A DNA stretch of 64,000 bases from Candidatus Moraniibacteriota bacterium (GTDB lineage Bacteria; Patescibacteriota; Minisyncoccia; Moranbacterales; UBA2206): assembly GCA_030645735.1 (NCBI GenBank), contig JAUSNP010000005.1:72151-136150 (forward strand), read 5' to 3'. Every line of letters starts with the position of its first letter. Within the stretch, counting starts at the first letter, position 1. The position numbers and the translations under genes are program-made. The notes beneath the pieces were generated by a model. The model saw only the letters and a program-made list of their open reading frames with translations, did no database searches and was not told where the DNA came from. Positions 5,796-64,000 of the stretch are shown here, one piece after another.

Positions 5796-5803
5796 ATACC
5801 CTT

Positions 5804-5904
5804 TGTCATTCCGGCCTTGACCCGGAATCTACTTACCGTAATTGCGAATTTAAATTTATCTCATGAATTATTGAGAAGGTCCCGGGTCAAGCCCGGGATG
5901 ACAG
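5804..5904. repeat. Miniature inverted-repeat element (TGTCATTSC-TIR family), copy 1, in the miaA-miaB spacer
   Basis: Left arm tgtcattccggccttgacccggaatc and right arm ggtcccgggtcaagcccgggatgaca are mutual reverse complements (one mismatch), and each arm is itself a hairpin. The same termini recur at 22708, 34004 (half copy) and 56685. Confidence 0.55.
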
Positions 5905-5911
5905 ATATTTT

Positions 5912-11773: not shown

Positions 11774-14700
11774 TTAGAAGATAGATATTTTTGCTTCCGG
11801 AATAATATTTTTCAAGTTTGTTTCGAGGTTGTTGGATTGGGTGATGCAATATGGCGTTTCAAGTTTTTGATTGTTGATGGAAAGATAGACTTTGAGGGCG
11901 CCAGCGTCACAGCGGTCGAAATATTGCGAAAGTTTTTTGAGGACATCTTGCTCGGCGTTGCTAGGTAGGGTGATGATCATTTTGGTGGCATCAGCTTTTG
12001 GCTCTGGTGTCTTTTCGTTCAATTTGCGCGTAGCCAAAATGCGGCTGAATTTTTCCACCTCAGCTTGGTTGATGACGGTGACAGTGTCGCACAGGATTTT
12101 GAAATTGCCATCTTTGTCAGAAATTTTTCCACCCACCAGTACGACCTTATCTTCTTCCCAAACTGCGCCAGTAGTGTCGAGAATTTTTGGGAAAACCAAA
12201 ATTTCCATAGCCGCATCCGTGTCTTCAATAGTCACAAACAACATGGTCTTTTGGGTTTTCAAATAGATTTTGTGAATTTTGGAAATAACGCCACCAACGT
12301 TGATATTTTGTCCGACGTGAGAAGAGTTGATATCTCGAATCGGCACACCCATCTGAGCAAAATAATCCTTGTATTCTCGCGCTGGATGATCACTGATATA
12401 GAGCCCCATCAATTCTTTTTCCCAACTCAGACGTTGTTTTTTGGTAGCCGGTTCACATTCAACCATGGCAATTTCTGGTAGGGCAATTTCCGAGGCACCG
12501 AACAGACTGCCTTGTTGTGAATTCTGATTTTTCTGAAAAGTCTTGGAATGGGAGATGATGTTTTCAATGGAAGCCACCACCTGATTTCTTTCAGCGAGTC
12601 CCTCCAGGGCGCCAACTTTGGCTAAAGCTTCAATAGATTTTTTGTTCAAATCTTTGGTTTGCACTCTTTCGACAAAATCAGTCAGAGATTTGAATTTGCC
12701 ACCTCTTTTTCTTTCCTCCACAATTTCATGCGCTACATTGTGGCCGACATTTTTGATAGCATTGAGTCCAAAACGAATGCGTTCTTTTTTGGTTTCTGGA
12801 TCAATAATTACTGCAAATTCTTCAAAACTTTCATTGATATGTGGCGCCATAACCTCAATGCCCATATCACGACACTCAGAAACTTCAATAGCGACACGAT
12901 CGATGTTGTCTTGGTCAGAAGTGAGTAGGGCGGCCATGAATGGCGCTGGAAAATGCGCTTTCAAGTAGGCGGTTTGATAACCAATGAGTCCGTAGCAAGC
13001 CGCATGAGAGCGATTGAATCCATAACCAGCAAATGGCTCAATGTATTCAAAAACTTTTTCACCAATTTTGCGATCCACACCTTGCGTTACACATCCCTCA
13101 ATGAATTTTATTTTCTGTTCGGCAATCAAGGCAAAAATTTTCTTGCCCATAGCCTTGCGCAAAACATCAGCTTCGCCCAAAGAGAAACCAGCCAAATCGC
13201 GCGCAATTTGCATAACCTGTTCTTGATAAACAGCTACGCCGTAAGTTTTTTTGAGAATCGGTTCCAAATTTGGATGCAGATAGGACATTTTTTTCTCACC
13301 ATGTTTTCGGGCGATGAAATCGGGAATCCAATCCATTGGTCCTGGGCGATAGAGAGCTACCATAGCAATGATGTCCTCTAACTCAGTCGGTTTCAAAAGT
13401 TTCAAGTATCTTTTCATACCAGAACTTTCTAGCTGAAAGACGCCAGTAGTTTCAGCTCGTTGCAAAAGTTCAAAGGCTTTGGCATCATCTAGTGGAATGG
13501 TATCAATATCAACTTCGAGACCTTCTAACTTTTTGACAATGCGCAAAGTGTTTTGAATGATGGTGAGATTTTTGAGTCCCAAAAAGTCCATCTTGAGGAG
13601 TCCAATTTTTTCTACAAAACTGGATTTGGTTGAGGATGAATATTGTGTTACTGTCCCGCCATTTTCACCACCCTTGATGATATTCTGCAAGGGAGTGTAT
13701 TCTGTCACAGGATCTTTGGTAATCACTACGCCACACGCATGCATTGAAGCATGACGAATCACGCCTTCTAAACGTTTAGCGCTGTCGATCAATTTTTTGG
13801 CGCTGGGATCCATGCCATAGAAATCTTTGAATTCTTTGGATTCTTCCAAGGCTTCTTCAATAGTAGAAAATTGCGGAATAAGTTTGGCAGTCTTGTCACA
13901 GAAATCATATGGAATGCCCAAAGCGCGGCCAGCATCACGAATGGCGGCGCGGGCGGCCATAGTTCCAAAGGTGATGATTTGGGCCACATGATCATTGCCA
14001 TATTTGCGACGCACATATTGCAAAACTTCATCACGTCGGTCATCAGCAAAGTCCATATCAACATCGGGCATAGAGACTCGTTCCGGATTCAAGAATCTTT
14101 CAAAGAGCAAATCATATTTGATTGGATCGATGTTAGTGATACCAGTCAGATAGGAAACGAAACTGCCAGCGGCACTACCACGGCCTGGGCCAACAATGAT
14201 GCCTTGGCTACGAGCCCAGTTGGTGAAATCTTGTACGATCAAAAAGTATGAGGCATAGCCAGTTTTTTCAATAACACTCATTTCATAATCCATTCGGTCA
14301 CGATGAATTTTGGTCACGTCGTCACCAAAACGTTTGATGAGACCATCCTCACAAAGTTTTTCCAAATAGGTTTGGGCGGTGAAGCCTGCAGGGAAATCGA
14401 AATGGGGGAGTTGCGTTTCGCCAAGCTTGATTTCCAAATTGCACTTGTCGACAATCTCCTGTGTATTGGCAATGGCTTCAGGAATATAGTCAAAATGCTC
14501 AGCCATTTCTTCTGGACTTTTCAAATACAATTCAAAATCCATCAGATTCATACGATCAGCCTCATCAACTTTGCGGTTGGTTTGGATGCACAAAAGAATG
14601 TCTTGAATTTCGGCGTCTTCTTTTTTGATGTAGTGAATGTCATTGGTCGCCACAACTTTGATGTCGAGTTTTTTGCCCAGCTCAATGAGTCCGCGATTGG

Positions 14701-15277
14701 CAACTTCTTGATTGGGATATTTGGGATGATGTTGAATTTCGAAATAGAAATCACCTTTGCCAAAAATGTCTTGATATTCTAGTGCCAATTCTTCGGCCTT
14801 GGCCAAATCACCCATGATGATGTGGGCGGGCACTTCACCTTGCGCGCAAGCAGAAAGACCGATGAGACCTTCGGAATATTTGCGCAAAGTTTGGCGATCG
14901 ATTCTCGGCTTGTAATAGAATCCTTCCAGATGAGCAATAGTGATGAGGCGCATCAAGTTTTTGTAGCCCGCTTCGTTTTTGGCTAGGATGATCAAATGAA
15001 ATCTTTTTTTATCTTCCGCCGTTGGATTCTTGCTGTGCAAATCATTGGCAGTCACATAGAACTCACAGCCAATAATCGGTTTGATGCCACGCTCTTTGGC
15101 TTTGATATAAAACTCAATGGCGCCATAGAGAACCCCATGATCAGTGATGGCCAAAGAATCCATGCCCAACTCCTTGGCATGATCAAGAATTTTGTCAACT
15201 TTGGCCAAGCCGTCGAGAAGGCTGTAATGAGTATGAACATGTAAGTGGGTAAATTTTGTTTTAGTAGATTCAGACAT
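11774..15277 (-). CDS. dnaE: DNA polymerase III alpha subunit
   Basis: 1167 aa; PHP-domain N-terminus HLHVHTHYSLLDG, polymerase core, OB fold. Confidence 0.95.
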   Translation of the reverse strand: MSESTKTKFTHLHVHTHYSLLDGLAKVDKILDHAKELGMDSLAITDHGVLYGAIEFYIKAKERGIKPIIGCEFYVTANDLHSKNPTAEDKKRFHLIILAKNEAGYKNLMRLITIAHLEGFYYKPRIDRQTLRKYSEGLIGLSACAQGEVPAHIIMGDLAKAEELALEYQDIFGKGDFYFEIQHHPKYPNQEVANRGLIELGKKLDIKVVATNDIHYIKKEDAEIQDILLCIQTNRKVDEADRMNLMDFELYLKSPEEMAEHFDYIPEAIANTQEIVDKCNLEIKLGETQLPHFDFPAGFTAQTYLEKLCEDGLIKRFGDDVTKIHRDRMDYEMSVIEKTGYASYFLIVQDFTNWARSQGIIVGPGRGSAAGSFVSYLTGITNIDPIKYDLLFERFLNPERVSMPDVDMDFADDRRDEVLQYVRRKYGNDHVAQIITFGTMAARAAIRDAGRALGIPYDFCDKTAKLIPQFSTIEEALEESKEFKDFYGMDPSAKKLIDSAKRLEGVIRHASMHACGVVITKDPVTEYTPLQNIIKGGENGGTVTQYSSSTKSSFVEKIGLLKMDFLGLKNLTIIQNTLRIVKKLEGLEVDIDTIPLDDAKAFELLQRAETTGVFQLESSGMKRYLKLLKPTELEDIIAMVALYRPGPMDWIPDFIARKHGEKKMSYLHPNLEPILKKTYGVAVYQEQVMQIARDLAGFSLGEADVLRKAMGKKIFALIAEQKIKFIEGCVTQGVDRKIGEKVFEYIEPFAGYGFNRSHAACYGLIGYQTAYLKAHFPAPFMAALLTSDQDNIDRVAIEVSECRDMGIEVMAPHINESFEEFAVIIDPETKKERIRFGLNAIKNVGHNVAHEIVEERKRGGKFKSLTDFVERVQTKDLNKKSIEALAKVGALEGLAERNQVVASIENIISHSKTFQKNQNSQQGSLFGASEIALPEIAMVECEPATKKQRLSWEKELMGLYISDHPAREYKDYFAQMGVPIRDINSSHVGQNINVGGVISKIHKIYLKTQKTMLFVTIEDTDAAMEILVFPKILDTTGAVWEEDKVVLVGGKISDKDGNFKILCDTVTVINQAEVEKFSRILATRKLNEKTPEPKADATKMIITLPSNAEQDVLKKLSQYFDRCDAGALKVYLSINNQKLETPYCITQSNNLETNLKNIIPEAKISIF

Positions 15278-15317
15278 GATATTTTAATGTGTAATTTTTT
15301 TAATTAATTTTTTCTGT

Positions 15318-15438
15318 TAGATAAGTCTAAGGTCTAATATCTAAAGACTAAATGAAGTCTAAAATATTTAAGTCTAATTTCTTTTTACTTTATACTTTAG
15401 ATTTGTTTTAGTCTTTAGTCTTTGAAATTTAGACTTAT
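15318..15438. repeat. Palindromic array of AAGTCTAA/TTAGACTT motifs (locus A)
   Basis: The left half carries aagtctaa-type units and the right half the reverse-complement ttagtctt/ttagactt units around an AT-rich centre. The same architecture and motif recur at 17841 and 62976. Confidence 0.6.
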
Positions 15439-15665
15439 AAAAAATAAAAAAACCACTATTCTAAAAAATAGGGCTTATGCGTCAAAAACTAATAAAAACT
15501 TTTTCATATGATTGTCTCTTCCTTCATAGCCCGGATTGCTCACTGGGTTTTGCAAGGTAGATTGATATGAAACAAGTATAGCATGGTTTGGAAAATAAAA
15601 GAACCCGCTAGAGACACGCATGAAATGTTCTTCATGGGTCTAGCGGGTTCTGGCGGGCAGGAGCA

Positions 15666-16061
15666 TCACGTAGGGATGCATCCTTGAATATTTTTGCGCA
15701 TTTCATTCTCTCCGGGGTGGGTTAAGGATAGGTTTCGCAGCATTTCATGTGGCTGCGTAATTCTTTGACTAACGCCTTTTTGCCAGTCGGCGTATTGTCG
15801 TCTGGCGATGATGTTTAGGGCGGTATAATAAATAAACCGTCCAACGACATATGCGTAATAGTGTATTGTCGGAATGGTGTTACGCATACATTTTGCAACA
15901 ACACGGCGATTGCGCCATGCCATCACGACACCGATAATGCTGCTGATGCCGGCGACTACCCATGCCATAAAAATTGGGTAGTGAACAACAACCACCGGAC
16001 CCATGGTGACTAGCGCCACCACGAAAATCGGAAAAACAGGAAAAGGGTTGGCCTCTTTCAT
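15666..16061 (-). CDS. Hypothetical membrane protein
   Basis: 131 aa with hydrophobic helices; SD AAAGGAGACAGAGAAAC before the ATG; GC elevated; nested hairpin at 15593-15645 downstream. Confidence 0.45.
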   Translation of the reverse strand: MKEANPFPVFPIFVVALVTMGPVVVVHYPIFMAWVVAGISSIIGVVMAWRNRRVVAKCMRNTIPTIHYYAYVVGRFIYYTALNIIARRQYADWQKGVSQRITQPHEMLRNLSLTHPGENEMRKNIQGCIPT

Positions 16062-16297
16062 GTTTCTCTGTCTCCTTTAATTTTAAAAAAACAAATGTGC
16101 GATTGCAATAAATTATTCAGTCGCACGCTCCAATCTGACTTCAATTGTCGCATAAAAATGAATAAAAGTCAATAGATAAAGACCAATTGGAAGATTGTGG
16201 CTTAAATAAGGGTAAAATTAGCAAAAATTCCAAGTAATAATTTCTACTTATAAGATTGCTACTTAAATATTAGATATCAAGGTATAATTTATTTATT

Positions 16298-16984
16298 ATG
16301 ACAAAACAAAACGCATCTTCATTTGATTTAGAGAAAAAACTTTTGACCAAGGGCTATGTTTTTGTTATTGGTACGGATGAGGCAGGACGTGGACCTTTGG
16401 CTGGACCAGTAGTGGCGGCCGCGGCGATTTATCGCGGGGCAAATTTTGAAATTCCAGAGGAAAAAAAGAAGCTGATGGACTTTGTGCGCGATTCAAAAAC
16501 AGTTTCGCACAAAAAGCGTGAAGAACTTTTTGATTTCATCCATGAAAATTTCTATATCGGTGTGGGAATGTGTGATCACAAAACCATTGATGAAATCAAC
16601 ATTTTGGAAGCTAGCTTTTTGTCGATGAAAAAAGCGCTGTCGGATTTGAAAACAAAGTTTCGCCACGAGATGCCAAATTTTGATAACAATATTATTCTAG
16701 TAGACGGCAACAAAAAAATTCCTAACCTGTCGCTCTATCAAGAAGCGGTCATTGGTGGCGACCGAATTTCCAAATCCATCTCAGCGGCGTCAATCATTGC
16801 CAAAGTCATGCGTGACCGCCTGATGCTCGAGATGCACGAGAAATATCCGCAATATGGTTTCGACAAACACAAAGGCTATGGCACCAAACTGCACATGGAC
16901 GCCCTGCAACAATTTGGCCCATGCGAAATCCACCGCCAAACCTTCGAACCTATGCCCAGCCTTGCTAAAAATAGTAAAAGATGA
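16298..16984 (+). CDS. rnhB: Ribonuclease HII
   Basis: VFVIGTDEAGRGPLAGPVVAAAAI catalytic motif; 228 aa. Confidence 0.9.
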   Translation: MTKQNASSFDLEKKLLTKGYVFVIGTDEAGRGPLAGPVVAAAAIYRGANFEIPEEKKKLMDFVRDSKTVSHKKREELFDFIHENFYIGVGMCDHKTIDEINILEASFLSMKKALSDLKTKFRHEMPNFDNNIILVDGNKKIPNLSLYQEAVIGGDRISKSISAASIIAKVMRDRLMLEMHEKYPQYGFDKHKGYGTKLHMDALQQFGPCEIHRQTFEPMPSLAKNSKR

Positions 16985-17035
16985 TAAATTAGTAAGTAAG
17001 TAAATAAAACTTAATCAGAGAATAATAATAACACT

Positions 17036-17236
17036 ATGTCAACACAGAAACAGAGACACACCAAAGGGCGAAGAGACCGAGCGAGAGCTGAATTGAAGCT
17101 CGTTTCAACTAAACTTGTAACTTGCACAAAATGTGGAGCCAAGATCAAAGCTCACATTACTTGTCCGAAATGCGGATTCTACAAGGGCGTAGAAGTTGTA
17201 GATACGATGAAAAAAGTAAAAAAACTCGCTAAGTAA
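17036..17236 (+). CDS. rpmF: 50S ribosomal protein L32
   Basis: 66 aa, basic N-terminus HTKGRRDRARA, zinc ribbon CTKCG...CPKCG. Confidence 0.85.
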   Translation: MSTQKQRHTKGRRDRARAELKLVSTKLVTCTKCGAKIKAHITCPKCGFYKGVEVVDTMKKVKKLAK

Positions 17237-17320
17237 AAGCGAATTTTAAACTAATAAAAACTAATGAGTGCGTTCGTTCTTATTTGCTCAATATTAGTTC
17301 AGAATTTGTGAGTTATATTT

Positions 17321-17827
17321 ATGGCTAATAGACACCTAGCACGTTCCATCGCAATGCAATCTCTTTATGAATGGGATTTCAAGGGCAAGAAGAACGAGAA
17401 TTTAGATGAGATTGTCAAAAAAAATATTGAAGAATTTGCTCCTGGACTTGAGGACAGTTCTTTTGTTTGTCATTTGGTGAAAAACACAGTAGCCAACCAA
17501 GGCAAAATTGATCCATTGATTGAAAAATGCGCGCCAGAATGGCCGTTGGATCAGGTGACAGTGGTGGATCGCAACATTTTGCGTTTGGGAATTTATGAAC
17601 TTTTGTTTGGCAATTATGAAGATGTTCCACCAAAAGTGGCCATCAACGAAGCCATCGAATTGGCCAAATCTTTTGGCGGTGAATCTTCCGGACGATTTGT
17701 GAATGGTGTACTTGGAACTATCTATCGAGAATTGGGCGAGCCGATGAAGAATGATACATCGAAAAAGAATAAACAGGTTGCGGAGGTCAAGTGTGATGGG
17801 GGTGAAGTGGTGGCCGAGGGGGTATAA
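17321..17827 (+). CDS. nusB: Transcription antitermination factor NusB
   Basis: [14 protein letters not shown]...[21 protein letters not shown] is a NusB fold signature; 168 aa. Confidence 0.85.
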
Positions 17828-17840
17828 TTAGTTTTTTTTA

Positions 17841-17968
17841 AATCTAAAGTCTAATTACTAAAGTCTAAATAAAGGCTAAAGTTTGAAAGTATAAAGTTTA
17901 AATAAAAAATATTTTAGACTTTAGACTTTAGAACTTCCTTTGGACTTTAAACTTTAGAATTTAGACTT
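17841..17968. repeat. Palindromic array of AAGTCTAA/TTAGACTT motifs (locus B, nusB-rnc spacer)
   Basis: Left half aatctaaagtctaattactaaagtctaaataaaggctaaag; right half ttagactttagactttagaactt...ggactttaaactttagaatttagactt. Confidence 0.6.
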
Positions 17969-17977
17969 CCAAATTTT

Positions 17978-18667
17978 GTGATTGAGGAATTAGCTGAAAA
18001 AATCGGCGTAAAATTTAATAATATTGAACTTTTGCAACAAGCTTTGACGCATCGTTCCTATTTGAATGAGCATCGAGACTACAAACTTGAGCACAATGAG
18101 CGCTTGGAGTTTCTGGGTGATGCTGTTTTGGAGTTGGTAGTGACCGAATATCTATATGCAAAATTTTCCAATCCAGAAGGTGAGCTGACCAATTGGCGCG
18201 CGTCATTGGTCAATGGTGAAATGTTGGCTAAGATTTCTGGTCGGATTGGTGTGGAAGAATTTTTGTTGATGAGCAAAGGTGAAGCCAAAGACACTGGCAA
18301 GGCGCGGCAATATTTGTTGGCCAACGCTTTCGAAGCTATTATCGGCGCAGTCTATTTGGATCAGAAAGAAAAAGGCTATGATGTTTGCAAAGAATTTATT
18401 TTGAAAAATGTTGTCTCTGAATTGGCTGAAATCATTGAAAACAAATCATATATGGATCCGAAAAGTCTTTTTCAAGAAAAGGCGCAGGAAAAAGTCAGTG
18501 TGACCCCGTCATACAAAGTCATTGAAGAGAGTGGCCCAGACCATGCGCGAAAATTTGTAGTTGGAGTCTATCTTGATCATGAACTGATTGCGTCTGGCGA
18601 AGGCATGTCCAAACAAGAAGCGCAAAGGAATGCGGCTGCTGCTGGGTTGGAGGCGAAAAAATGGTAA
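17978..18667 (+). CDS. rnc: Ribonuclease III (likely GTG start)
   Basis: RNase III signature ERLEFLGDAVLELVV and a C-terminal dsRBD; 229 aa. Confidence 0.9.
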   Translation: MIEELAEKIGVKFNNIELLQQALTHRSYLNEHRDYKLEHNERLEFLGDAVLELVVTEYLYAKFSNPEGELTNWRASLVNGEMLAKISGRIGVEEFLLMSKGEAKDTGKARQYLLANAFEAIIGAVYLDQKEKGYDVCKEFILKNVVSELAEIIENKSYMDPKSLFQEKAQEKVSVTPSYKVIEESGPDHARKFVVGVYLDHELIASGEGMSKQEAQRNAAAAGLEAKKW

Positions 18668-21539: not shown

Positions 21540-21674
21540 AAAAGACAAATTTCATATAGAATAAATATAATATCCGTAGACAGTAGGCATCCATAAGCCC
21601 TACCGAGGAAGGCCAAAGTGGCTTTTTAGTCTGCGATCAAACGCAGATTTTAATTTTTTAAAGGCACTATCAAT
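21540..21674 (+). promoter_or_regulatory. Candidate structured ribosomal-protein L10 leader (autoregulatory 5' UTR of rplJ-rplL)
   Basis: 135-nt untranslated region with hairpins gcc-aaagt-ggc+TTTTT and tctgcg-atcaaa-cgcaga+TTTT directly before rplJ; position matches known L10-leader regulation in other bacteria. Confidence 0.4.
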
Positions 21675-22707: not shown

Positions 22708-22807
22708 TGTCATTGCGAGCGACTGAAAGGAGCGCGGCAATCCCATGATTCGTGCATCAGAACTAGAGATTGCCACAGTCGTTCTGCGGAACTCCTTCGC
22801 AATGACA
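22708..22807. repeat. Miniature inverted-repeat element (TGTCATTSC-TIR family), copy 2
   Basis: Termini ctgtcattgcgag...ctccttcgcaatgacaa; internal inverted repeat gcggcaatc...gattgccac. Confidence 0.55.
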
Positions 22808-22826
22808 ATTGTTGTTTAGTTCTTTT

Positions 22827-27658: not shown

Positions 27659-27782
27659 ATGTAATAAAATTCGAAATTCGAACATCGAAATTCGAGACAA
27701 TATCTAATATTAAAATTTTAAATAATTAAACAATTCTGTATCTTTTGAATTTGTTTCGGATTTCTTATTTCGTGCTTTGAAT

Positions 27783-33840: not shown

Positions 33841-34003
33841 TTTGTAATATTGAATATCCAGCAGCCTTGTTAGGGCTGTTTTTTTGTCGCTCGACCTGTG
33901 GATAACTCGCCCTTGCCAATGTGGGTGAGTGGAGTAAAATAGGGAGGTAGGTAACTCAAGTGGTACATTGTGGGGATTCACAATTAGATACTACTGAATA
34001 AGC

Positions 34004-34047
34004 GCGAGATTGCCACGTCGTCCGCGGCGGACTCCTCGCAATGACAA
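34004..34047. repeat. Half copy (right arm) of the TGTCATTSC-TIR element family
   Basis: gagattgccacgtcgtccgcggcggactcctcgcaatgaca is about 85% identical to the right arm of copy 2 (22766-22807); no left arm detectable. Confidence 0.45.
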
Positions 34048-34487: not shown

Positions 34488-34488
34488 G

Positions 34489-34610
34489 AAATTCAAAATC
34501 CAAAATCTCAAATTCCAAATAAATACAAATATCAAAATCCAAAATGTTTTGAGTTTAGAAAATTGTAATTTTGAATTTATTTGGGATTTGTAATTTATAA
34601 TTTGTAATTT
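34489..34610. repeat. Palindromic array of AAAATCCAAAAT-type motifs (mraZ-rsmH spacer)
   Basis: Left half aaatccaaaat/aaatctcaaattccaaat repeats; right half the reverse-complement attttgaattt/atttgggattt units. The architecture matches the AAGTCTAA arrays with a different unit. Confidence 0.5.
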
Positions 34611-34612
34611 AG

Positions 34613-36094: not shown

Positions 36095-36096
36095 TG

Positions 36097-36283
36097 GAGC
36101 TAGATTTCTTATCTCACCGCTTATTTTAAAAACTTCTATATTGCTTGCCTGCTAAAATTTTCTAATTTTGGCTGCAAACCCTTCAAAGCTCGTCAGGTTA
36201 TCTCTATAGCCTTCCTCACTTTTCATGGTTTTCGCTCAAAATTATAAAATTCTATCTAGGCATGAGATAAGAAATCTAGCTCT
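36097..36283. mobile_element. 187-bp element with perfect 21-bp terminal inverted repeats filling the ftsL-ftsI spacer
   Basis: ggagctagatttcttatctca (36097-36117) versus tgagataagaaatctagctct (36263-36283); no ORF inside. Confidence 0.6.
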
Positions 36284-36292
36284 CGCATCTTT

Positions 36293-46724: not shown

Positions 46725-46808
46725 CATGTAACATGAAACATGAAACAAGGTATTCCCACAAAGTTATCTTAAAAATGTTACATGTTTCATGCTTCATGTT
46801 GCATGAAT
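46725..46808. repeat. Palindromic array of CATGAAACA/TGTTTCATG motifs
   Basis: catgtaacatgaaacatgaaaca ... tgttacatgtttcatgcttcatgttgcatg; the halves are reverse complements. Confidence 0.5.
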
Positions 46809-53569: not shown

Positions 53570-53681
53570 TGATATAAATCGCAAATCAATCACGAATCTT
53601 TCCCGAATGATCACGAATGAAATCTGAAAAATTAGAGATTATTAGAGTTTAATTAGTGTAATATTAGAGATTTATAACATC

Positions 53682-56684: not shown

Positions 56685-56763
56685 TGTCATTCCCGCGTAG
56701 GCGGGAATCTAGGGTAGAAACTTAATGATGCATGACTGGATTCCCGTTTCCACGGGAATGACA
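56685..56763. repeat. Miniature inverted-repeat element (TGTCATTSC-TIR family), copy 4, just upstream of mnmA
   Basis: tgtcattcccgcgtaggcgggaatc ... gattcccgtttccacgggaatgaca; same arm architecture as copy 1. Confidence 0.55.
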
Positions 56764-61669: not shown

Positions 61670-61706
61670 TAACTCAATAAACAAAAATAAAATTCTCTAT
61701 CTAGGA

Positions 61707-62975
61707 ATGTCAATTTTTTCTAAAATTTTAGGTTCACACAGGGGATCTTCGGATTTCATTCTGTCTCTTGATATTGGAACTGAAGTGGTTAAAGCTTTGG
61801 TTTTCAAGATTGATCCAGAGACTGGCAATGGCATTGTGACGGGCGTGGGACGAGCGCGACAAAGATTGGGTGACATGCAAAGTGGTGCAGTGTCTGACAT
61901 TGCGGGCGTGATTGAAAACTCCAAACGCGCGATTGCTTTGGCCAAGCAAATGGCTGGTGCCAAAAAAGTGGAAAAGGCTATCATTGGCATTGCGGGTGAA
62001 CTGGTGAAAGGCACCACGACCACTGTGCATTATGAAAGAATCAAACCAGAAATCAGAATTGATTTGCCGGAATTGAAAAACATCATTCAGAAAGTGCAAT
62101 GGAAAGCATTTGATCGCATTCGTCAACAATTGGCTTGGGAAACTGGTCACAGTGAAATTGAAGTGAAATTGATCAACGCAGCCATAGTGGACGTGCGCAT
62201 CGATGGCTATCGCGTGACCAACCCAGTTGGTTTTCAAGGACGCGATGTTTCCATTTCAGTTTTCAATGCCTATGCGCCGATGGTACATTTGGGTGCCTTG
62301 CAATCCATTGCCGAAGAATTGAAATTGGATTTGTTGAGCATTGCTGCTGAGCCATATGCGGTGGCGCGTTCCATGGGCATTGAAGATGTGTTGGATTTCA
62401 ATGCAGTTTTCATTGACATTGGTGGAGGCACCACTGACATTGCGGTGGTCCGAAATGGTGGATTGGAAGGCACCAAGATGTTTGCGCTGGGTGGCCGCGC
62501 TTTCACCAAACGATTGGCGCAAGAATTGGGCATCACTTTTGAAGAAGCTGAAATTTTGAAAATCAAATATGCTGAAGGACGACTCGGAAGGGATGTATCA
62601 ATCAAAATTGAAAAAATGTTGGAACAAGATTGCAGTGTGTGGTTGTCGGGCGTGGAATTGTCACTGGCTGAATTTGCTGAATCTGATACTTTGCCATCTA
62701 GGTTTTTCTTGTGTGGTGGTGGCTCAGGTTTGCCAGGAGTCAAGAAAGCTTTGATGAATACCAAATGGACGAAAAATTTGCCGTTTGCCAAGATGCCACA
62801 AGTCAGCTTCTTGCAACCAAAAGACGTAGTGAATATAGTTGACAGAACTGGCGAATTGCGCGACCCTCAAGACATCACCCCAATGGGCTTGGCCAATCTA
62901 GCACTTGATTTGGCCGGCGAAGAAAAAGTGATGGCGGGTATTTTGAGGAGGGCGGTCAAGATGATACAGAAATAG
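61707..62975 (+). CDS. ftsA: Actin-like ATPase FtsA (or PilM-like); start at the ATG at 61707 preferred over the ORF-track TTG
   Basis: LSLDIGTEVVKALVF phosphate-1 and IDIGGGTTDIAVV phosphate-2 actin-fold motifs. Confidence 0.75.
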   Translation: MSIFSKILGSHRGSSDFILSLDIGTEVVKALVFKIDPETGNGIVTGVGRARQRLGDMQSGAVSDIAGVIENSKRAIALAKQMAGAKKVEKAIIGIAGELVKGTTTTVHYERIKPEIRIDLPELKNIIQKVQWKAFDRIRQQLAWETGHSEIEVKLINAAIVDVRIDGYRVTNPVGFQGRDVSISVFNAYAPMVHLGALQSIAEELKLDLLSIAAEPYAVARSMGIEDVLDFNAVFIDIGGGTTDIAVVRNGGLEGTKMFALGGRAFTKRLAQELGITFEEAEILKIKYAEGRLGRDVSIKIEKMLEQDCSVWLSGVELSLAEFAESDTLPSRFFLCGGGSGLPGVKKALMNTKWTKNLPFAKMPQVSFLQPKDVVNIVDRTGELRDPQDITPMGLANLALDLAGEEKVMAGILRRAVKMIQK

Positions 62976-63082
62976 TCCGTAAAGTTAAAAGTCTATAAAG
63001 TCCATAAAGTATAACTATGACTTTAATAGACTGCAAATAATAAGACTTTATGAACTTTAAGGACTTTAGACTTTAAACTAAA
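62976..63082. repeat. Palindromic array of AAGTCTAA/TTAGACTT-type motifs (locus C, after ftsA)
   Basis: aaagttaaaagtctataaagtccataaagt ... gactttatgaactttaaggactttagacttt. Confidence 0.55.
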
Positions 63083-63086
63083 ATTT

Positions 63087-64000
63087 ATGCATCAAACGTT
63101 TTACATTGATATAGACGAAGAAATCACTTCCATTGTGGATCGATTGAGAAAATCGAAATCACGGGAGGTGGTGATTGTCGTGCCAAAAAGAGCAATTCTC
63201 ATTCAGAGTATTGTGAATTTGAAATTGCTCAAAAAAGAAGCGGATGATTTGAAAAAAGAAATTATTATTGTGACACAAGATAAATTTGGCAAGATGATTA
63301 TTGAAAAAGCTGGCATTGTGGTGGAGCAACGTTTGGATGATGTAGAGGGCCAAGAAGTTCAAGAATTGGAAATTGATGACAAAAAAATTAAAATTGGATC
63401 TGACGCAGGCGCAGCAGAATCCGCAGACAATCAGCAAAGAAGAAAACGATTGGATAAGATTGGTTCCGATGGCTATTATCAAGCAGAAAATTTAGATGCT
63501 ATTTTGGGACGAGAAGCGGTGATTACGGAACAGGACAATGAGCCAGCCAGAAAAGGCAATGAAAGCGGTGAGCGAATTTTGAATAAAGAGTTGGTGATTG
63601 ATATGGGTGACGATTTGCGTCACCAGCAATCATCTTTCAAAAAAAATATAGCCAAACGAGGAACGTTTGCGCCAATGGATATGATTCGCAATGTAGAAAT
63701 GAGTGAAGATGGTCTGACCCAAGAGGATGAGGAAATAACAAAACCAACAGAAATATTAATCAAAAAATCTCGCCAATCATTCAGACAAGAGGAATTGTCT
63801 GAGTTTGAGGAGGAAGTTGAGGATGACGCGCCAAAAATGCAAAGAGCGGGCAGTTTTTTTGAGCATCAAAAATCAATCAATGCCAATGAGTATAAAAATA
63901 TAAATATTGGCGGCGGTACTTGGAAATATTTCGTGACTTTCGGTATTTTCGCAGCGGTTGTGATTTTTGGCGCAGTGGGCTATTTGTATTTGCCTAAAGC
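63087..64000 (+). CDS. Partial CDS (open to the window end), hypothetical protein with acidic low-complexity regions and a C-terminal TM segment
   Basis: ATG at 63087 with no stop codon through position 64000; ends with the hydrophobic stretch WKYFVTFGIFAAVVIFGAVGYLYL. Confidence 0.4.
   Translation, partial: MHQTFYIDIDEEITSIVDRLRKSKSREVVIVVPKRAILIQSIVNLKLLKKEADDLKKEIIIVTQDKFGKMIIEKAGIVVEQRLDDVEGQEVQELEIDDKKIKIGSDAGAAESADNQQRRKRLDKIGSDGYYQAENLDAILGREAVITEQDNEPARKGNESGERILNKELVIDMGDDLRHQQSSFKKNIAKRGTFAPMDMIRNVEMSEDGLTQEDEEITKPTEILIKKSRQSFRQEELSEFEEEVEDDAPKMQRAGSFFEHQKSINANEYKNINIGGGTWKYFVTFGIFAAVVIFGAVGYLYLPK

Follow-up and report, generated by a model that had tools for sequence, protein, structure and literature searches.

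The intercistronic sites of phage T7 are RNase III mRNA processing sites, and the RNA hairpins of two extragenic repeat families are also cut, those of Correia elements by RNase III and those of ERIC elements by RNase E. The RNase III of Escherichia coli cuts a stem in its own 5′ untranslated region (5′UTR) and the rpsO–pnp spacer, and excises intervening sequences (IVSs) from rRNA (PMC8708148). Very little is known about the organization of transcription units and about RNA processing in the reduced, uncultured Patescibacteria (CPR). Short insertions other than introns occur in their rRNA genes at the tips of stem-loops and are suspected IVSs (PMC11270868). The palindromic arrays described here share with the E. 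coli rnc leader and other RNase III sites a long double-stranded stem directly upstream of rnc or between cistrons. In contrast to the E. coli rnc leader, the predicted stem here is 35–50 bp long, about 80% A+U and built of tandem heptamers, and the arrays are repeatedly replaced and dispersed. With REP/BIME/REPIN, ERIC, Correia (NEMIS) and BOX/RUP elements they have in common that they are extragenic, form hairpins, lie in transcription units and differ in presence or absence between strains, and the size of ERIC and Correia elements (100–150 bp) is also that of the arrays. Unlike these families, however, they lack a conserved consensus, a GTAG/CGTC head and a target duplication and have a low copy number per family, and an internal tandem-heptamer architecture is seen in the arrays but not in the REP, ERIC, Correia or BOX families. 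An identity with REP/BIME/REPIN was rejected because no unit is tagged with GTAG/CGTC, the arrays consist of direct 7-mers rather than alternating palindromic units, and no RAYT was seen.

The TAACTGA repeats of Beggiatoaceae and cyanobacteria, STRR and the long simple sequence repeats (SSRs) of Mrazek likewise have 7-nt units in intergenic DNA and a sporadic phylogenetic distribution, and TAACTGA-type repeats likewise end a few nt from start codons that lack a Shine-Dalgarno sequence (PMC4679880). One passage of that paper, citing Mrazek 2007, gives heptamers as the commonest long simple repeats in bacteria and attributes them to polymerase slippage. TAACTGA-type repeats are direct repeats of one fixed heptamer, with 169 direct sets and one indirect set (PMC4679880), whereas the present arrays are imperfect, use many units and combine an array with its inverted copy. 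TIGR arrays, in which two alternating 8–12-nt repeats with 9-nt spacers lie beside a Nop-domain tas gene (PMC12045711), were also considered and rejected, since the units here are contiguous 7-mers without spacers and the neighboring genes are dnaE, nusB, rnc and ftsA. Full-text searches of a library of papers found no description of such arrays in CPR/Patescibacteria.

Three palindromic arrays and their counterparts in the window

The window, a stretch of 64,000 nt from a Candidatus Moraniibacteriota bacterium, contains three loci that the initial annotation had described as long imperfect palindromes between co-directional genes, and both the complementarity of the arms and the folding z scores agree with this description. 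Locus 1 (15318–15438) consists of five AAGTCTA-like units, an AT-rich centre and five inverted units in the leader of dnaE; it is upstream of dnaE as had been stated, but on the minus strand (dnaE, 11774–15277), about 40 nt before the start. Locus 2 (17838–17969), with six plus six units, fills the spacer between nusB (17321–17827, plus strand) and the RNase III gene rnc (17978–18667, plus strand), so that one of the loci indeed lies directly upstream of the RNase III gene. Locus 3 (62976–63082), with AAAGTCYAT-type units spaced by 9 nt, follows ftsA (61704–62975, plus strand), as reported; it lies between the ftsA stop codon and an ATG at 63087, to which the start of the next gene had to be corrected. 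The genes flanking the loci are dnaE, rnhB, rpmF, nusB, rnc and smc, with ftsA at locus 3. Homologues of Rnc carry the names Candidatus Moranbacteria or Parcubacteria, which places the genome in the Patescibacteria. All three loci are AT-rich palindromes of 110–130 bp with units of 7–9 bases, and their G+C content is 18–25%, compared with 40.7% for the window. An independent public run assembly includes an 11-kb contig (L001) that matches the window at 100% identity over both locus 1 and locus 2.

The unit is of the AAGTCTA type, as the initial annotation had it, but is better described as a 7-mer whose final A is common to the next unit, and locus 3 holds only a single exact copy of AAGTCTAA. 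An excess of this motif was found in the window for exact copies, of which there are 11 on both strands against 1.8 expected (the maximum in 100 shuffles being 5), but not when one mismatch was allowed (59 against 53.5 expected). Ten of the 11 exact copies, and 26 of the 59 one-mismatch matches, fall inside loci 1–3, which total about 360 bp; the AAGTCTAA signal is thus one of clustering. A scan of the 64 kb for clusters of AAGTCTA returned three clusters only, namely loci 1–3. In each, the left side holds the plus-strand copies and the right side the inverted ones, in the patterns +++++----- at locus 1 and ++++++------ at locus 2, with six units at locus 3. The units are spaced by 7, 11, 14 and 15 nt in loci 1 and 2, which have the series 7-14-11-15 in common, and mostly by 9 nt in locus 3.

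On alignment, the two halves proved reverse-complementary, as expected from the initial description: the arms of locus 1 (60 nt) are 75% and those of locus 3 (39 nt) 79% complementary, and locus 2 has several segments of 20–24 nt in slipped registers that are 83–87% complementary. RNA folding gave −28 to −38 kcal/mol for loci 1–3, with z scores of −4.0 to −6.4 on either strand (−4.8/−4.0, −5.6/−5.3 and −5.0/−6.4 for loci 1, 2 and 3, respectively), and none of 200 shuffles folded as well. The predicted hairpins comprise 36–47 bp; that of locus 2, with 47 bp, ends 9 nt before the GTG of rnc. Rfam gave no match in the arrays, either in the whole window at gathering thresholds or in 15250–15700 at E-value thresholds.

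The initial annotation had overlooked that AAGTCTAA is one among many interchangeable units. A palindromic array of CAAAATC/GATTTTG (34488–34612, z −3.3) fills the mraZ–rsmH spacer, and another of ACATGAA/TTCATGT (46725–46805, z −5.3) lies between the genes for malic enzyme and a UPF0047 protein. A weaker heptamer array with AAATTCG units (27660–27782), between dnaX and tRNA-Gln, folds only as plus-strand RNA, the z score of the minus strand being 0. In a further spacer (53570–53681), which measures 3–17 nt in relatives, two arrays of short units are not complementary and form no palindrome (z −0.2). MraZ boxes, the GTGG repeats expected upstream of mraZ, are present and were rejected as relatives of the arrays.

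Turnover and dispersal of the arrays

Inverted repeats were found with a purpose-written ungapped scan of the window and relatives' sequences, which returned 153 of them in 1.36 Mb, compared with 3 after block shuffling. Among 35 strict arrays, the period is 7 in both arms of 21 and 8 in six. Tandem direct 7-nt copies in intergenic DNA, the mark of heptanucleotide SSRs, are therefore present, but we rejected an SSR with one fixed direct unit, because the units are imperfect, specific to the locus and paired with an inverted array.

Comparison of the same spacers in relatives, as the initial annotation had suggested, showed that palindromic arrays recur, but with other units, or that the spacer is absent. 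In four relatives with 82–86% identity in Rnc, the nusB–rnc spacer measures 127–151 nt and contains a palindromic array in every case; the units are AAATCCT, CAATTTT, AAATCCG and AAATTCC, none of them AAGTCTA. The dnaE leaders of the same four relatives likewise carry palindromic arrays of other units. In more distant Patescibacteria, the nusB–rnc units include GATTTAC, CAAATGA, TAAACTGC and AAAGCTC, and the arrays sometimes surround a G+C-rich central hairpin. Even in L088, which is 92–93% identical to the window at the DNA level in rnc and smc, the nusB–rnc array is unrelated to locus 2, and it is 96% identical over 57 nt to an array in L084, where coding DNA is only about 78% identical. The contig of this closest relative ends inside the nusB–rnc array (L088, 1–93), which suggests that the palindromes break short-read assemblies. 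In relatives at 87–88% Rnc identity, the nusB–rnc spacer is 0 or 31 nt long, and the junctions downstream of ftsA, between the DUF8128 and T4CP genes and between rplM and rpsI measure 3–38 nt in relatives, the short spacers consisting of two to four T/A-rich heptamers. Elements are thus gained, lost and replaced quickly, and the sequence of the unit is interchangeable. The two arms of one locus nevertheless belong to the same unit family, though the family differs between lineages. Arms of the same family fit copying at the DNA level as well as they fit selection for pairing.

Whole arrays were further compared for collinearity, with shuffles of 7-mer blocks as the control. The mraZ–rsmH array of the window is collinear over its full length with the nusB–rnc arrays of L085 and L086 (z 15), the array downstream of ftsA in L215 is collinear with the rplM–rpsI array of L217 (z 9.6), and loci 1 and 2 align with a z score of 6.9. 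Since arrays are collinear across loci and genomes, they are dispersed elements and not only local expansions. An array family has two or three copies in 64 kb, which are about 75% alike. The suggestion of a further MITE family gains from the dispersal, the differences in presence or absence and the collinearity; against it, no target-site duplication was found at the edges of loci 1–3 or in comparisons of filled with empty sites, and the gene annotations of some 20 related loci include no transposase. The terminal inverted repeats of a MITE are present trivially, the whole element being palindromic.

A GTDB scan with the Rnc alignment gave, among the matches listed, mostly distant relatives. 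A scan of metagenomes for AAGDCTA arrays gave at least 120 loci, nearly all of them direct heptamer microsatellites in unrelated organisms; about nine of those listed are palindromic, in contigs that were selected for heptamer repeats and are therefore not a fair control set. Heptamer arrays in palindromic pairs were seen at L115 4151–4221, L160 683–768, L154 1818–1931 and elsewhere, and because these metagenome contigs come from unrelated, partly G+C-rich organisms, the form is not confined to Patescibacteria.

Enrichment in front of rnc and a candidate role in RNA processing

AT-rich palindromes occur in 17 of 75 nusB–rnc spacers and in 25 of 799 other co-directional spacers (odds ratio 9, p = 6 × 10⁻⁹). 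Among spacers of at least 60 nt, 17 of 37 at nusB–rnc and 25 of 416 elsewhere carry one. At the level of clades, defined by 70% Rnc identity, a palindrome is found at nusB–rnc in 9 of 42 (p = 5 × 10⁻⁶), where a position before rnc is not separable from one after nusB, since every case checked has nusB in front of rnc; the nusB–rnc order is conserved in all Patescibacteria sampled. Downstream of rnc, no enrichment of AT-rich palindromes was found. The predicted nusB–rnc stems have 47 pairs at locus 2 and 24–47 in 15 further lineages, and end 7–15 nt before the rnc start.

The spacers at the same junctions are only 0–3 nt long in relatives, which implies co-transcription of the neighboring genes as operons. 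In L029, a promoter (TTGCAA-17-TATACT) is followed by the whole array and then by the ATG of rpmF, and a promoter-like TTGACG-16-TAGAAT lies upstream of the whole locus 1 array. tRNA genes directly adjoin arrays in L019 and in the window. The sites occupied by arrays are otherwise very short operon spacers, 5′UTRs, pre-tRNA leaders and one rRNA helix tip. Judging from these positions, the arrays are very probably transcribed as hairpins.

The rRNA case is in the 16S rRNA gene of L023 (16766–18915), in which a 140-nt palindromic heptamer array (16853–16992) makes up the end of a lengthened helix 6; the 213-nt helix 6 region folds at −86.8 kcal/mol (z −11). With its 140-nt AU-rich stem at a stem-loop tip, this array resembles rRNA IVSs and matches the description of short, uncharacterized CPR rRNA insertions (PMC11270868), whereas the loci of the window sit in mRNA spacers and not in rRNA. 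The same gene has a separate insertion of 741 nt near model position 510.

We consider it roughly 45% probable that the arrays are generated by processes acting on DNA and that RNase III cuts the RNA transcribed from them, the copy preceding rnc being a feedback site. The class would consist of AT-rich elements of 100–150 bp, each with four to six imperfect units of 7–9 nt, an AT-rich centre and the units inverted. Such arrays might arise by heptamer slippage together with inverted duplication or exchange between loci or arms. By virtue of their position they would be transcribed, and the RNA would form an AU-rich hairpin of 35–50 bp, with a few nt left between its end and the start codon that follows. 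RNase III would then cut the hairpins, separating or destabilizing the cistrons, and cleavage of the hairpin before rnc would place RNase III under negative feedback, in the manner of the E. coli rnc leader. The predicted 47-pair stem is well above the length of an RNase III substrate (at least 20 bp, about two helical turns), and the position in the rnc leader is recurrent, with transcription deduced from the 0-nt spacers of relatives. RNase III sites are defined by structure over sequence (PMC8708148), which would explain the free turnover of units. From their placement in gene spacers and their concentration in front of rnc, the arrays probably act as RNase III-cleavable RNA hairpins. The substrate for RNase III or for processing that the initial annotation listed among several roles is thus favored by the enrichment at the rnc junction and the positions in transcribed spacers, as a candidate role.

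If the arrays are RNase III sites, they mark the points at which operon transcripts are cut, and they would offer the annotation of CPR genomes a signal that is independent of sequence and easily recognized. They would also show how a simple mutational process, heptamer slippage with inverted duplication, can repeatedly create a functional RNA element.

Several results limit this reading. The arrays are dispensable, being absent at each junction in some close relatives, and some occur in convergent spacers. One array of the window folds only on the antisense strand and one spacer has arrays that are not complementary, which speaks against a role as an RNA hairpin. Among 29 oriented arrays, the sense strand has 50 G·U and 48 A·C mismatches, and folding energies do not differ between the sense and antisense strands. 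When the units of the right arm were permuted exhaustively, 12–46% of the orders folded as well as the actual one, so that unit order has no significant effect on folding; an earlier test of mirror order was underpowered owing to poor splitting of the units. Because permuted units fold as well, hairpin potential follows from unit content and selection position by position is unnecessary.

The lack of a strand-specific G·U signature means that a neutral or selfish reading remains serious, although we hold it to be doubtful. The arrays would then be by-products of slippage and hairpin formation or template switching, or a MITE- or REPIN-like family, and the RNA hairpin would be incidental. Besides the absence of a G·U bias over A·C and of a sense-strand advantage, this reading is favored by the unit order, which is not optimized for pairing, by the variation in presence and the replacement of arrays among close relatives, and by the occurrence of one array family at different loci. 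The "empty" spacers of two to four T/A-rich heptamers suggest growth in place, and palindromic heptamer arrays are also found in unrelated heptamer-rich metagenome contigs. The reading does not account for the ninefold concentration at one conserved junction in nine independent clades, nor for an array of 120–150 nt that is kept at nusB–rnc and in the dnaE leader of five Moranbacteria with streamlined genomes, nor for one array arm that is 96% conserved where the adjacent coding DNA is 78% identical. A mobile family is further opposed by the low copy number and by the failure to find a transposase or a terminal target duplication. Even if neutral, the arrays would break assemblies, and their evolution is rapid enough for use in telling strains apart.

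An unlikely extension of the RNase III reading is that the arrays are an undescribed, self-renewing and spreading class in Patescibacteria, acting as modular RNase III "punctuation", with a near-universal feedback hot spot at rnc and with IVSs in rRNA. Arrays that spread in this way would in effect make RNA-processing signals mobile.

As unusual AT-rich intrinsic terminators or attenuators, the arrays would derive from bidirectional terminators, by way of their A- and T-tract flanks, and would halt or reduce transcription from one cistron to the next; we regard this proposal, of which the initial annotation named the terminators, as very improbable. In most arrays the A-rich arm precedes the T-rich one, which is also the order in bidirectional terminators, but this polarity is reversed in some arrays (L084 and L022). 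A G+C-rich hairpin stands at the array centre in the relatives L006, L010, L023 and L028, but loci 1–3 have AT-rich centres, 18–25% G+C and no G+C-rich stem. Nor does a T run follow the stem, the sequence 3′ of the hairpin being ccaaattttGTG at locus 2, aaactaaaatttATG at locus 3 and atctaacagaaaaaatt at locus 1 on the minus strand. A terminator scan of 15000–18500 gave no site in locus 1 or 2, although ordinary terminators, with a G+C-rich hairpin and a T run, are present elsewhere in the window. Arrays begin directly after stop codons, as terminators would; they also lie between promoter and start codon (L029 and locus 1) and immediately precede tRNA genes, which termination there would leave without a promoter, and the 0–3-nt spacers of relatives imply that transcription continues through these junctions.

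A protein-binding array, whether for a binder of single-stranded RNA with a 7-nt footprint (a cold-shock protein or S1, a proposal made for TAACTGA repeats) or for a nucleoid protein on DNA, is less probable still. The 7-nt period fits such a protein, CspB binds heptamers with one protein per unit (PMC4679880), and a CSD gene is present in a relative. The spacing is, however, irregular (7, 9, 11, 14, 15 and 19 nt) and without helical phasing, and the mirror arm is left unexplained. A binding array for a protein that reads AAGTCTAA, in line with the nucleoid or regulatory protein initially suggested, is not supported, because the unit changes from locus to locus in one genome and, in orthologous spacers, from one close relative to the next; an iteron or transcription-factor array was rejected on the same grounds of spacing and conservation. 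Start codons without a Shine-Dalgarno sequence follow the T-rich arm at a distance of a few nt, but this absence is the norm of the genome, and its specificity for genes after arrays was rejected (1/13 versus 19/112). A likeness of the T-rich arm to the BoxA or CspB consensus is confined to the AAGTCTA family and was treated as coincidence.

AT-rich promoter islands, with a promoter in the centre, the A-rich arm as an UP-like element and the T-rich arm as an unstructured leader, are the least probable reading: locus 2 has a weak central match (TTGAAA-16-AAAAAT) and TAnnnT hexamers are numerous in the T-rich arms, but the region has 8 promoter-like matches against 9.3 in shuffles, the array centres of relatives lack a consistent −35/−10 pair, good promoters precede the whole array in L029 and at locus 1, and one array lies inside a 16S rRNA helix.

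Other elements in the window

Upstream of locus 1 and dnaE, a small conserved unit (15443–15620, minus strand) is conserved in all of the five Moranbacteria that were compared. A −10-like TATAMT box comes first, followed by a core of 45 nt (ATCTACCTTGCAAAACCCAGTGAGCGATCCGGGCTATGGAGGAAGA) and then by a hairpin with a T run, and variation in the stem takes the form of compensatory changes; the promoter-like sequence upstream of locus 1 overlaps its end. Rfam gave only a weak match to a PyrR site in 15443–15620 (E 0.86). The unit may serve dnaE as a leader or attenuator, or it may encode a small RNA. An ORF of 131 aa (15666–16061, minus strand) matches nothing in Pfam and is unusual in being hydrophobic and repetitive in composition; it is possibly not a real gene, because the position is non-coding or occupied by other genes in relatives.

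Two further kinds of repeat were observed in the window. Between two co-directional genes (36095–36292), about 150 nt are flanked by the two halves of a perfect 21-nt inverted repeat (ggagctagatttcttatctca ... tgagataagaaatctagctc), a different, MITE-like structure. G+C-rich palindromes at 5796–5911, 22740–22810, 33990–34040 and 56690–56724, with cores of gtcattcc/ggaatgac or cattgcgag/ctcgcaatg, are a second intergenic palindromic family that is unrelated to the heptamer arrays. Rfam also identified a ribosomal protein L10 leader (21556–21662) upstream of rplJ, with a score of 45 bits against a gathering threshold of 44.
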